Part shown: positions 10,466-52,042 of the stretch, one piece after another
Numbering within the stretch: position 1 is the first letter of the stretch
Layout of the letters: every line of letters starts with the position of its first letter
Assembly (NCBI GenBank): GCA_951406725.2
Contig: OX597818.1
Span: 78,058,001-78,122,000, forward strand
Source: Octopus vulgaris
Taxonomy: Eukaryota
Direction of reading: 5' to 3'
Length of the DNA stretch: 64,000 nt
The notes under the pieces: model-generated
Told to the model about the DNA's origin: nothing
Seen by the model: the letters and a program-made list of their open reading frames with translations, nothing else
Databases searched by the model: none
Translations under genes and position numbers: made by a program

Positions 10466-10566
10466 ATTAACCTGAAGATTGACTGTAACCACTACTCGAA
10501 TTATTAATTGAATTTAAATTATTGTTATTCGAATTGGTTACGGGCATGAAACGATCGTAGTGTTTT
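10466..10566 (+). ncRNA. Hammerhead-ribozyme-like motif (type I, long stem II), probably from a PLE pseudo-LTR
   Basis: CUGAAGA (10472-78), U, stem II ugacuguaacca/ugguuacgggca with inner ucgaau/auucga, U, GAAA (10548-51), CGAUC, GUA. ACGAUCGU is palindromic. Stem I is weak. Confidence 0.65.
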
Positions 10567-11329
10567 TACTCTTTATCTTATATTAAACTTTTAATACTTT
10601 TTGATAGTTAAAAAAAAAATAAAATAAATAAATAAATAAATAAATAAATATAAAAATAAAAAAAATATAAATAAAAATAAAAAGATAAATATTACATGTC
10701 TCTTAACCCTTATACCTTTTAATGTATACAGGCATACATACATATATGCATACACATATAATCACACATATATGTGCATATATATATGCATACACACACG
10801 TATATATATGCATATATATACACACATGTATACACGCACACGTAGATATATATTATACATATATACATACATACCTACATATACATACACATATACATAC
10901 ACACATATATATACATACGCACACATACATATACACATATACATACATAAATGTTCACAAATATATATATACATACACGTATAGATATATCTCAAGACAC
11001 ATACACATACATAAATACATTTCTCTGCATATGTGTGCATACACATCTGCATAACTGTACTTATGTACTCACATGAACATGTACGTGCGTGTGTGTATGC
11101 ATACATATACATATAAACACATACACGCGCACATATGTATATACACACAACCACAAACACAATAAATTCACACGCCCTTATACACACGTACATATATATA
11201 CGCAAATACATACATATGCACACATGTACACACATACACAAACATACAAGACATATAGACATACAAACATATATTCCTATATATATTTTTTATACATACA
11301 CACATACATGCACAATCACAGATACATAT

Positions 11330-11712
11330 CGAGGCACTCTGTCGGTTACGACGACAAGGGTTCCAGTTGATCCGATCAACGGACCAGCCTGCTCGTGAAA
11401 TTAACGTGCAAGTGGCTGAGCCTTCCACAGATACACATACTCTTAACGTAGTTCTCGGGGAGATTCAGCGTGACGCAGAGTATGATAAGGCTGGCCATTT
11501 GAAATACAGGTACGACAGAAACAGGAAGAAACAGTGAGAGAAAGTTGTGGTGAAAGAATACAGCAGAGTTCACCACCACCCCTTGCTAGAGCCTCGTGAA
11601 GCTTTAGGTGTTATCGCTCAATAAACACTCACAACGTCCGGTCGGGGGAATTGAAACCGCGATCCTATGACCGCGCGTCTGCAGCCCTAACCACTGGGCC
11701 ATTGTGTCTCCA
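11330..11712 (-). mobile_element. SINE with family C head and a different 3' tail
   Basis: Head is the reverse complement of 9250-9420. The tail recurs at about 56000-56210. Confidence 0.7.
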
Positions 11713-12958
11713 CACAGATAGATATATATACACCTATACACCCACACACCCACATATATATATATAGTACATAAAAGTGTATATACTCATATGTAGTTCT
11801 CATTATTCAGGCACTGTTTGGTTGGTGTCTTTCTGTGGATTGTTGGTATGGTAGTTCCGGCGGTTTTGGTATTATTTTTTGTTCAGTTTCGGTTGATATT
11901 TTCGAATAAAATATTCTTCCTTGTTCTTACGAAAATGTTAATTTTCTGTCCATAGTTTGAAGAAAGGGAATATTTTAAATTTTCTTTTCTCACATTTTTC
12001 GAAGTGTTCACTGCATGTTGTATTTCTAACAGAGGGGTCATAGATTTGTTATTCATGTACCCTTACCCTCTCATATAGTCCAATGCTTGTTTCACCTATG
12101 TATTCTTGCATTCGGGACATGTGGCACAATCGATTGGATTTCTGGATTTGCGATTCATATTTGCATTTATTTTAAAGGCGTTGTTGTCTTTCAAAGTAAT
12201 TTGTTCTCTTTGTTCAATGTAATCACACGTTCCACAGCGAGGGTCATCACAGTTTTGAACTCTGTTGTTTCTCTAGTGGTAAATATTACTTGGGTATTTG
12301 ACGTCTGCTATAAATTATTTTTGGATCTATAATTAATTTGTTCATTCTTGATGATTGTTGAAGAATTGGGAGGTATCTTTTTGCAGTGTTGATGATGTGA
12401 TTTTTTGGGTTGTCGGTGATGATAAAAAGAATGTTTATGAGTTCAATTTTATATCTGTATGTTTGTTTTCCTCTGAGGTGTGTAGTTAGGATGTTTTTTG
12501 CTTTGGTGATTGCTGCGTCAATTAAACTAGTGGAATATTTATGTTCTTTTAGAAATATTTTAAATTCCTGTAATCTTTTATCCCTTAATTCTACATCTGT
12601 TACTGTAGTGCAAATTGGTTTTGCCATGTTAACGGGTATGTTTCTTTTGGTATGTGTGAGATGGGAGGAATGAAAATTCAAATATTGATATATGTGTCTG
12701 TAGGTTTGTAGAAGAGGTCTGTTTTTATGGTATTATTTTCTGTAATTAGAAGCATGTCTAAAAACAGGAAATTCTTTTGTGCGTTGTTCCATGGTGGATT
12801 TTATTGAGGTATGTAAATTATTTAAAAGTGAGTGAAAGTTTCCTAAGTCTCTTTGGTTTTTGGTCCAGAATATAAAGCAGTCATCCAAATATCGTTTCCA
12901 GTTGTTTATATATATATATATATATATATATATATATATATATATATATATATATATA

Positions 12959-13460
12959 TATTACATACATATAAGAGGGAATTTACCACTATGTGGAAGC
13001 TCTTATGCTAGAAGAAGATCCGCTATGGTCTTACCACTAAGAATTGTTCTCAAGAACATTTAGCAAACACCAGAAACGTAAGCGAGCAAGAAAAAGAAAA
13101 TTAACGAAAATATAGATTAATCATAAACAAATGTTTCACTATCAACAAATTACGTAATTTTACTTACATAATTTATCTGTAGATCTTCAGTATGATCGTC
13201 TATACAAATATAAAAATGAAAAACTACACACCGTCATTAACACATTTCTGGTGTTTGCTAAATTTTCTAGAGAACAATTCTTAGTGGTAAGACCATAGCA
13301 GATCTTCTTCTAGCATCAGTGTTTCCACATAGTGGTAAATTCCCTCTTATATGTATGTAATACTATTTATTTACTGAAACTCAGTTTTTATATGCTAGAC
13401 CACTGGTGTTAAAATTTATGTTATCAAATTAATATCCAATTGTTCACCCTCATTTTAATT
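12959..13460. mobile_element. Non-coding fold-back element (inverted pLTR-like arms) inserted at a TA site in the PLE RT
   Basis: Arms 12959-13079 and 13242-13362 are reverse complements with a few mismatches. Flanked by (TA)n. The host frame reads ..QFSVYI|NNWKRYLDD.. across the insertion. Confidence 0.85.
13119..13197 (-). ncRNA. Type I hammerhead ribozyme with extended stem II
   Basis: Minus-strand RNA: gaucaua CUGAAGA U cua-ca-gauaaauuauguaa guaaaa uuacguaauuuguu-ga-uag U GAAA CAUUU GUU / uaugauu. Core is intact, stem I is 7 bp (one G-U) and stem II about 17 bp. Predicted cleavage between 13126 and 13125. Confidence 0.8.
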
Positions 13461-49598: not shown

Positions 49599-49779
49599 AT
49601 AATATTATAATAAAACCCACAAATCTCGTTAAGTATAGCTACCCAGGATTTTCTGGCTGAAATGAGAATTTATTTCACCATTTTTCAAGCTGAGTACTGT
49701 TGAAATAAATTATTTTTTTGACCAGGAAACCCTAGGTAGCTGTATGTAACAAGATTTGTGGCTTTTACTATAACATTAT
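49599..49779. repeat. Diverged inverted repeat (about 80-bp arms) near a TA tract
   Basis: taaaacccacaaatctcgtta against taacaagatttgtggctttta; aatttatttca against tgaaataaatt. Confidence 0.8.
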
Positions 49780-50290
49780 CTTTGTTGCGTTAGCTGTTCA
49801 AGTGCTTTTCTACTTGTTGAAGCATAACCACAGTTATATATATATATATATATATATATATATATATATATATGTGTGTGTGTGTGTGTGTGTGTGTGTG
49901 TGTGTCTGTTTAAATTATGTTTATTTATATTGATACAAACATATATATATATATATATATATATATATATATATATATATCACTTACTATTCCTCTCCTG
50001 TAATTGCTTTATGCTAAATAGTAGGCATACAACCCTACCTCTTATTATTTCATGCTGTAGACAAATCATTTCACATATATTCCGTATTTCGACCACTTAG
50101 TTGAATAAAACTTCTACAGCTGCTACATTTCACACACCCAACCTCGCTTCCAACTGCAGTTGTTAATACTGTCTTTGCATTTACTTATTCATGATAAAGA
50201 AATACTAGTTAATCTTCCTTCAGGCTGTTTTCAGTTGTGGCTTGTCTGGTAATACCAGTTTTTTTTTGTTTTTTTTAAAATTTCTGACAG

Positions 50291-50392
50291 GATGCAGAGA
50301 AGAGTTATCAACTATCTCAGATTATCAGTTTTATACAGCAAATAATATATCTATCTCATTTCCTACAAACAGGGCTAGTCCTAGAAATACTG
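50291..50392 (+). CDS. Probable exon following LDLa
   Basis: Long poly-T tract and ctgacag acceptor. Phase-1 open frame GCREELSTISDYQFYTANNISISFPTNRASPRNT. The donor g|gtattc is weak. Confidence 0.55.
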
Positions 50393-51638
50393 GTATTCTG
50401 GACAAACTGAATTTTGGCACCTTTGCATACCAACACCGCCTCTATCACCATCATCATTGTCTTTGTTTTAATGTCCACCTTTCCATGATTTTGTGGGTCA
50501 GGTGAGATTTGTTGAAGTAGTTTTTTTTCTATGACTAGATGCCCTTTCTGTCTCCAGCCTTCACCTTTTTCCAAGCAAGGTAATAATTTCCCTCCTGCTC
50601 TAGAACTCCATACATGAACAAGACAACACTTAGACATGTTTCTATGGAAGATTGCAACCTTAATTTGCAAACATTACCTTGTATGATGGCACCATTTGTT
50701 TACAATAAGTATGCAATCTTCAGACATGGAAGCCCAAATGCACACACACACGCATAAGCACACACACACAGACACACAGAGCTGAGAGGCTTCTTTCAAT
50801 TTCCATCTACCACATCCACTCACAAACTGTGACTGGCCGTAAGCCTGGGACCATAATAGAAGATACTTACCCAAGGAATCGCACATTGGGAGTGAGCCCA
50901 AAACCACATATATAATTTAAATATACTTTAACAAAGAATGGTGTCAAGAAGGTCAGCTGGTTGTAAAACATTGCTTCAAAAAGTCCCAATCCAACAGCAA
51001 GGAAAGACAGACACAAAAATAATTAATACTTGGTTGCTTATATTTATCACTTATTGATGTGCTGTCTTAAAAAGTGAGTATGTGCTATTGAATAGGCTCA
51101 ATAAGGTTGAAATGGATTTGGCATTTTTGTTTGCTACACCTCAGATGAATTTTGATCTCACTTTGATATCTATTGTGTCCATAACACTGCATGTCCATAA
51201 GAGCTATTATCTCAAGACAAATACCACAATAACTAGCCTAACAACAGAGTATATACATTGAGTATGATACACAGATGGCATTGTTTTATAGTTGATTTTT
51301 AATTGTCCAGATAGACAATACAAAGAAAACAAGGACAGGTCATTCGAAGTTTTCTATCTTCAGTCAAGAACCAGATTATCCTCGCAATTTCAGCTGATTA
51401 TTCTTGAGATTGCTCCAATCTGGCCAGCCCCAAAGAAAAACTAAGCTAAGACCATTAGATTCCTTCGAAGAAAGCATTGAATGTATACAAAAACAAGGAC
51501 GGAAAAAACAGACAATGTTACACAAATATAAATACAATAAAAAATATGTATGTATATATATATATATATATATATATATATATATATATATATATATATA
51601 TATACGGGTGTGTGTGTGATTGTGTATAGAAGAATATA

Positions 51639-52042
51639 TTAATAAAAGGAATTCCAACCTTGTCTGATTTTCACGTTTTATTTACAATCTTATAATGATA
51701 TAAGATAATATAATATAATAAAATAAAATAAAATAATAGAATGTTAAATGTTCATTCTGATTTAATGTACTTTCATGCATTAAATTCTGCAATCTTCAGG
51801 TTCGTGTAGTAGTGGTGACAGTCATGCTTCACAAAATTGTGAAGCATGACTGTCACCACTACTACACGAACCTGAAGATTGCAGAATTTAATGCATGAAA
51901 GTACATTAAATCAGAATGAACATTTAACATTCTATTATTTTATTTTATTTTATTTTATTTTATTATATTATATTATCTTATATCATTATAAGATTGTAAA
52001 TAAAACGTGAAAATCAGACAAGGTTGGAATTCCTTTTATTAA
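51639..52042. repeat. Near-perfect 404-bp palindrome between TA tracts with a partial hammerhead motif in each arm
   Basis: Arms 51639-51834 and 51837-52042 with a 2-nt loop. They appear to differ only in (ATAAA)n copy number. CUGAAGA U UGCA-GAAUUUAA-UGCA U GAAA GUAC at 51872-51904. Confidence 0.92.

Follow-up and report, generated by a model that had tools for sequence, protein, structure and literature searches.

The minimal hammerhead ribozymes (HHRs) of metazoan Penelope-like elements (PLEs) lie at element ends and have a short palindromic helix III through which dimers form (PMC4209133); PLE hammerheads of this kind act as dimers and are slow in vitro (PMC4209133, PMC6765202). Here we describe four loci with hammerhead-like motifs in a 64,000-nucleotide (nt) stretch of AT- and microsatellite-rich animal DNA from Octopus vulgaris (contig OX597818.1, positions 78,058,001 to 78,122,000 of the forward strand; "the window," in whose own numbering all positions are given) and compare them with the closest described systems, with statements on published work limited to the accessible parts of the sources. 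File S2 of Craig et al. 2021 (PMC8557442), "Canonical HHR motifs," holds 26 rows for 25 PLE families of the Hydra clade, and by our count by eye 14 of these rows read ctga.gaT-stem II-Tgaa and have a GUH triplet and a stem III that is palindromic or nearly so; 11 of these U.U rows come from Hydra, 2 from a sea cucumber, and 1 from a sea louse. The slot occupied by the two U's is G-C, G.U, or U.C in 11 of the 12 other rows, and in the row for Octopus an A-U pair is preceded by an additional G. (TA)n is preferred by 26 of the 27 listed Hydra-clade families (PMC8557442). Fig. S3 of Cervera and De la Pena 2014 (PMC4209133) has the U.U layout in Hydra and in Drosophila willistoni; the GAAA column of that figure is displaced in the extracted text, and the Hydra row is confirmed by File S2. 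In D. willistoni, this hammerhead family occurs in short interspersed elements (SINEs) and in 450-bp tandem arrays. Natural stems II that open with U10.1-U11.1 were also described by Perreault et al. 2011 (PMC3088659), where this is cited as the best-tolerated mispair; the variant is described there as rare and is not tied to PLEs.

The four loci have their core boxes at 10472(+), 13190(-), 19259(+), and 51872(+) and are referred to as L1, L2, L3, and L4, respectively. We consider it quite probable that all four carry the layout published for Hydra-clade PLEs and are likely 5'-truncated end-pieces reverse-transcribed into (TA)n; only L2 is complete and would be predicted to cut, probably as a dimer.

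The U.U layout at four loci

A core box, a U after A9, a stem II with 3 or more pairs, a second U, and GAAA are present at each of the four loci, which bears out the statement of the first-pass annotation that U follows A9 and precedes G12 at all of them. That annotation also described the same CUGAAGA arrangement throughout. The U.U layout stands, but L3 has UUGAAGA in place of CUGAAGA, and the hammerhead is complete at L2 only. The boxes C3-U4-G5-A6-N7-G8-A9 and G12-A13-A14-A15.1 are exact in L1, L2, and L4, whereas L3 has U at position 3; YUGANGA covers the core boxes of all four, and a Saccoglossus row in PMC4209133 likewise has U3, together with G8. The majority consensus of that paper, with one extra base followed by G10.1-C11.1, is unlike our loci, all of which lack this pair and have U.U in its place. 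A reading in which a U is inserted after A9 was rejected, as pairing works only with U facing U and G-C occupies the slot in File S2. The G-C, G.U, and U.C pairs found there set the register as a U10.1.U11.1 mismatch rather than an insertion. The facing U's are 67 nt apart in L1 and 44 nt apart in L2, and the very long stem II at these two loci is locally distinctive. The N7 of G10.1 binds a metal ion near A9, and a U at position 10.1 would alter that site.

The U.U pattern gave 5 matches at the 4 loci, the additional one, at 51799(-), being the mirror copy of L4. Three local shuffle schemes yielded means of 0.29, 0.26, and 0.33 matches and a maximum of 3; none of 200 shuffles in any scheme reached 5 or even 4 matches. 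The pattern was derived from the tested loci themselves, so the comparison is somewhat generous, but the excess is still large, and the density within the window thus lies above the shuffled background (5 versus ~0.3; 0/200). The boxes alone, without the stem, were mildly enriched (7 versus ~2.8, a number reached by 6 to 7 of 200 shuffles). Only L2 passed a filter for core, stem II, stem III, NUH, and a stem I of at least 3 bp, a combination that was matched in 4 to 5 of 200 shuffles.

Likeness to the Hydra-clade rows (Penelope-1/2/3/4/5/6/8/9/14/16/18_HM, Hydra-1/2_aJap, and Hydra-1_cRog; PMC8557442) extends from CUGANGA-U, stem II, U-GAA(A), the palindromic or near-palindromic stem III, and GUH to the type I topology, the 3' location, and the (TA)n targets. 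By eye, stem III of L3 is that of Penelope-1_SK plus one base, and the short stem I of L1 (AC/GU and then A.G) is as in Hydra-1_cRog. Hydra-1_oBim, the Octopus entry in File S2, lacks U.U and differs in sequence from all four loci. L2, L3, and L4 have inverted arms and terminate in (TA)n; the end of L1 is an A/TAAA run, and no inverted arm was found for it. No direct-repeat (tandem) copy of any locus was present in the window. A mostly self-complementary stem III had been noted earlier. This held for L1 and, near-perfectly, for L3, was weak at L4, and failed for the copy at 13190 but not for most of its family, so that the short palindromic stem III of dimer-forming PLE hammerheads was found in L1, L3, and the L2 family majority. 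Self-duplex energies of stem III were -12.0 kcal/mol for L1, -7.2 for L3, -4.7 for the L2 copy, and -4.6 for L4, the last two being weak.

The loci had also been described as sharing no other sequence, which is correct for five of the six pairs, among which pairwise comparison revealed no significant similarity. L1 and L4, however, are identical at 21 of 24 bases (10473-10496 versus 51840-51863; 0/500 shuffles), and their best 17-mer was equaled in 6 of 500 shuffles; the gapped score of the whole region was not significant (23/300). This resemblance indicates that L1 and L4 share ancestry, so that the loci appear to represent about three independent families, not four. The evidence supports hammerheads of the PLE type in more than a single repeat family.

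The hammerhead at 13190 and its repeat family

Pairing analysis and the minimum-energy fold both identify L2 as a complete type I hammerhead (13110..13205, minus strand). Stem I pairs 13197-13191 with 13125-13119 (7 bp), with a further 7 bp beyond an internal loop. The core CUGAAGA (13190-13184) is followed by U 13183, which lies opposite U 13138 and next to a long stem II of 18 pairs with two bulges, and GAAA occupies 13137-13134. Stem III has 2 bp and an AUUU loop, the triplet is GUU, and cleavage is predicted between 13126 and 13125. Folding gives the three-way junction as the minimum-energy structure (z, -3.73; 0/200 shuffles). The ribozyme lies in a short element (12962..13460, minus strand). 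The inverted arms (13242-13359 and 12962-13079; 118 bp, 94%) have the hammerhead between them, an extension of ~100 bp is present on one side only, and (TA)n is found at both sides. The element is inserted on the same strand in the reverse-transcriptase (RT) region of an older host PLE, and a tblastn alignment of the host stops at residue 365 and resumes at residue 368 across the insert. Inverted 5'-truncated arms, one-sided tails, and nesting are standard in PLE insertions (PMC8557442, PMC3846280): those described by Arkhipova et al. 2013 (PMC3846280) and in Fig. 2 of Craig et al. 2021 share the head-to-head inverted arms, the one-sided extension, the solo end-pieces, and the nesting in other PLEs seen here. 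Unlike in those insertions, no open reading frame (ORF) accompanies the arms here, and (TA)n masks the target duplications.

Related sequencing runs contain the L2 family in abundance. Contigs from four runs and three organisms (1674, 1626, 1085, and 175 contigs) were aligned to the L2 element at 80% likeness, and 40 of the 75 difference rows were examined. Eleven of the listed differences lie within the hammerhead, and the core boxes, the facing U's, and GUU are free of any. One change, carried by 73 to 85% of the depth in all four runs, yields a palindromic stem III, ACAAUUGU, whose self-duplex energy is -8.2 kcal/mol, compared with -4.7 kcal/mol for the 13190 copy. Six of nine changes in stems I and II retain the pair. 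The loose-end consensus of one run (14 contigs) can be read as another form, in which stem III is the shorter palindrome ACAUGU and the triplet is GUA. Contig depth near the 3' end of the element was ~10 times that over the ribozyme, a peak that agrees with the prediction from 5' truncation.

The main alternative, which we regard as unlikely, is that these are non-autonomous, retrozyme- or SINE-like families in which the hammerhead is under its own selection and which spread via small self-cleaved RNAs. The abundance of the L2 family, its conserved core, and the absence of an ORF in the 500-bp element fit this idea, as do arms that enclose the ribozyme rather than destroy it. There is precedent in the SINE and 450-bp array of D. 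willistoni and in the argument that animal retrozymes are PLE derivatives (bioRxiv 10.64898/2026.07.22.740005). Non-LTR (long terminal repeat) retrozymes, however, are tandem units of 170 to 400 nt, each with a canonical type I hammerhead, and there are no tandem copies in the window. Moreover, L2-family depth drops sharply away from the 3' end and is nearly nil at 13217-13233, and the loose ends show that other copies carry more sequence upstream of the ribozyme, a picture expected of truncated longer elements. Derivation by 5' truncation from PLEs remains our preferred reading. A further proposal, less likely than not to hold, is that the L2 family is an abundant non-autonomous PLE derivative whose U.U hammerhead has a stem II several times longer than any listed for this form and can fold between the arms, and that this lineage has many uncounted working ribozymes.

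Four loci in 64 kb had been taken to imply a large genome-wide number. The L2 family is indeed abundant, but extrapolation from four loci overcounts, as three are incomplete and two share ancestry. In the run X1, summed depth over the L2 ribozyme was ~19,000 to 41,000, versus 39 to 77 for single listed contigs, which hints at hundreds of copies, although summed depth is not a copy number. Part of the L2 element was present in 20 of 24 sequencing-run rows, and half or more of it in none; no RNA run holding the element was listed among these 24 rows. A contig from X12 across the ribozyme was dismissed as evidence of transcription because X12 is only guessed to be RNA. A metagenome scan with the L2 motif returned one match, in GC-rich coding sequence with no second box or stem nearby, which we attribute to chance, and a viral scan with the L1/L4 motif returned none.

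Incomplete copies at 10472, 19259, and 51872

L1 (10455..10570, plus strand) has CUGAAGA at 10472-10478, U 10479 opposite U 10547, and GAAA at 10548-10551 around a long, interrupted stem II, which dominates its fold (z, -2.16; 5/200 shuffles). Its stem III is the palindrome ACGAUCGU, and its triplet is GUA (10557-10559). Proximal stem I has only 2 contiguous bp followed by an A.G mismatch, and ~400 bp of 13% GC sequence lies upstream. Activity of L1 is doubtful.

L3 and L4 both lie within palindromes. L3 (19196..19318, plus strand) is a 123-bp palindrome of 96% identity with its center at ~19257, and the core stands at this center, in the right arm, which runs out into (TA)n. The core reads C-UUGAAGA (box, 19259-19265), U.U flanks a 3-bp stem II, and GAAA occupies 19278-19281; stem III is the near-perfect palindrome ACAG-UA-CU(A)GU, and the triplet is GUC. 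Upstream of the core, nothing pairs with the 3' strand of stem I (19293-19298). Eight bases of the left arm recur immediately before the core, whose first two U's may derive from the fold-back. L4 (51640..52041, plus strand) is a 402-bp palindrome of 95% identity centered at 51835, with (TA)n past both ends. Its right arm has CUGAAGA at 51872-51878, U.U around a 4-bp stem II, and GAAA at 51897-51900, with a possible weak stem III (AGU-AC-AUU), a UUA triplet, and 0 bp of stem I. The core of L1 and the 5' strand of its stem II have a homologous counterpart at 51840-51863; this degenerate first core and L1-like strand directly precede the second core, as if a tandem pair or the rearrangement of a copy had given rise to the sequence. 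Neither L3 nor L4 folds as a hammerhead (z, -0.48 and -0.27). Their motifs form part of the arms and would be caught up in a hairpin, whereas the L2 arms enclose the ribozyme. With stem I lost and the motifs inside long hairpins, both are likely inert.

These defects raise the possibility that L1, L3, and L4 are fold-back by-products of AT-rich DNA and not hammerheads at all, with L2 alone being real. All three fail the stem I test, L3 and L4 lack a hammerhead fold, and the two U's before GAAGA in L3 may stem from the repeated 8-base piece of the mirror arm. We nevertheless judge this improbable: three loci with boxes, facing U's, and a stem far exceed the shuffles, and the palindromic stem III and GUH of L1 and L3 match published rows. 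Six other fold-backs in the window were inspected for cores, and only the one at 17794 has one.

Parentage, neighboring repeats, and what the loci add

If the loci are 5'-truncated PLE end-pieces, they would be the ends of Hydra-clade-like PLEs or of their non-autonomous derivatives. Two RNA copies would pair via the stem III palindrome, as in the dimer folding known from the literature, and cleave after GUH, and this cleavage would help to process the long RNA precursor of the element. The 3' end could then be copied into a TA run by a PLE reverse transcriptase/GIY-YIG enzyme acting in trans, the truncated copy acquiring an inverted arm during integration.

Several observations weigh against this interpretation. 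U.U rows in File S2 have stems II of 3 to 5 bp and loops of 3 to 8 nt, which L1 and L2 greatly exceed in the length of stem II. Three of the nine stem changes in the L2 family, taken from 40 of the 75 difference rows, break a pair when counted singly; linkage between changes is unseen and the 80% likeness filter favors conservation, so that support from this family is moderate; and the comparison with copies elsewhere covers the L2 family only. The host of L2, a degenerate, near-full-length, endonuclease-positive PLE (11790..16400, minus strand) with RT, a C-x4-CxxC linker, and GIY-YIG, has no hammerhead at its visible 3' end, and its linker is of another type. No Hydra-clade protein motif was found in the 64-kb window, and no autonomous parent could be linked to the loci. 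Six tail and stem motifs from L1 to L4 did not occur in the consensus files of Craig et al. 2021, in which line breaks may hide a match; the families therefore look unlisted there. Given the lack of a Hydra-clade ORF motif and the other-group linker of the host, we claim likeness to the Hydra clade, not membership in it.

The first-pass annotation had instead proposed a subclass of hammerheads that is lineage-specific, possibly uncatalogued, and carried by several families of elements unrelated to one another in sequence, a view that we now find very improbable. No Rfam hammerhead model matched the window at the gathering threshold or the L2 stretch at an E value of ≤10, and no hammerhead was among the best 150 of 264 rows of a wider Rfam listing. 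The 2014 descriptor (PMC4209133), which permits "a possible extra N10" and "N11," found none of the four loci and recovered L2 only with loop II relaxed to 60 nt; its limits (stem II, 3 to 7 bp; loop, 3 to 10 nt; no loop III) exclude all four. Our literature search for cephalopod PLE hammerheads yielded only the single non-U.U Octopus row in File S2, and the word "ribozyme" is absent from the accessible part of PMC13282606. Yet the same layout has already been published for PLEs of cnidarians, echinoderms, crustaceans, and insects, being tabulated for Hydra, sea cucumber, and sea louse and illustrated for D. willistoni, which refutes novelty of the core layout. It appears as "canonical" in File S2 and is also figured in the 2014 paper, the U.U mismatch is published for other natural hammerheads (PMC3088659), and L1 and L4 are related. 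The motif is thus covered by the literature and not by Rfam. Least credible is that the motifs with a long stem II represent the hammerheads missing from Naiads, which target (TA)n and are flagged "HHR half core," with boxes 35 to 50 nt apart: the L2 boxes are 46 nt apart and an Octopus Naiad, flagged HHR_half_core, prefers (TA)n, but by eye L1 to L4 do not resemble the 3' ends published for Naiad_Obim and Naiad_Ovul and the six motif searches were blank, and we reject this parentage.

The host PLE is ~40 to 55% identical to oyster PLE proteins; its protein has 13 relatives, of which those named to species are from oysters or a pearl oyster. It is interrupted by the L2 element, a TA run, and a mariner-type DNA transposon (13865-15184) with inverted ends of ~55 bp and a partial DDE transposase (PF01359; E, 3e-25). 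A fifth hammerhead, at 17750-17810(-) with its core at 17794, has the ordinary minimal PLE layout (extra base, G10.1-C11.1, and GAAA-UG-UA), 4 to 6 bp of stem I, and the core CUGUUGA, with U at position 6. Facing it in head-to-head orientation is an RT-thumb fragment of a 5'-truncated PLE (17859-18056, plus strand), for which a search found no homolog at near length; two relaxed hits of this kind were seen, versus 0.27 per window in shuffles. Older fold-backs with 67 to 78% arm identity and no recognizable hammerhead lie at 18837-19083, 29972-30157, 34493-34921, 49599-49779, and 62715-63120, the first being very AT-rich, ending in (TA)n, and adjoining L3. An end motif of CC, a pyrimidine run, and T/A (e.g., CCTTCTATATAA and CCCTCTATATAA) precedes (TA)n at L2 (12971), L3 (19303-19315), and L4 (52030). 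A similar motif stands before (TA)n at 28156-28167, in a fragment at 28150, and at 16953-16964, where it closes the host PLE region on its outer side. This common end suggests a shared 3' signal for TA targeting. Among the 60 matches listed, unfiltered BLAST searches of the flanks gave only microsatellite noise. The sole Rfam match at the gathering threshold was a solo 5S rRNA-like copy at 27748-27866(-) (67.5 bits), whose stem mismatches suggest a pseudogene or a 5S-derived SINE head.

Taken at this strength, the octopus loci add new repeat families to a published form of PLE hammerhead and define no new ribozyme class or mechanism. In the accessible literature we found no assay of U.U PLE examples (Lunse 2017 and supplements may hold some), and L2 and its relatives are a ready substrate for one. 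If the proposal for the L2 family is correct, the family would offer a natural allelic series for testing how well the core tolerates U10.1.U11.1. Neither Rfam nor the published descriptor detects long-stemmed versions like L2, so that ribozyme counts in such genomes are too low.

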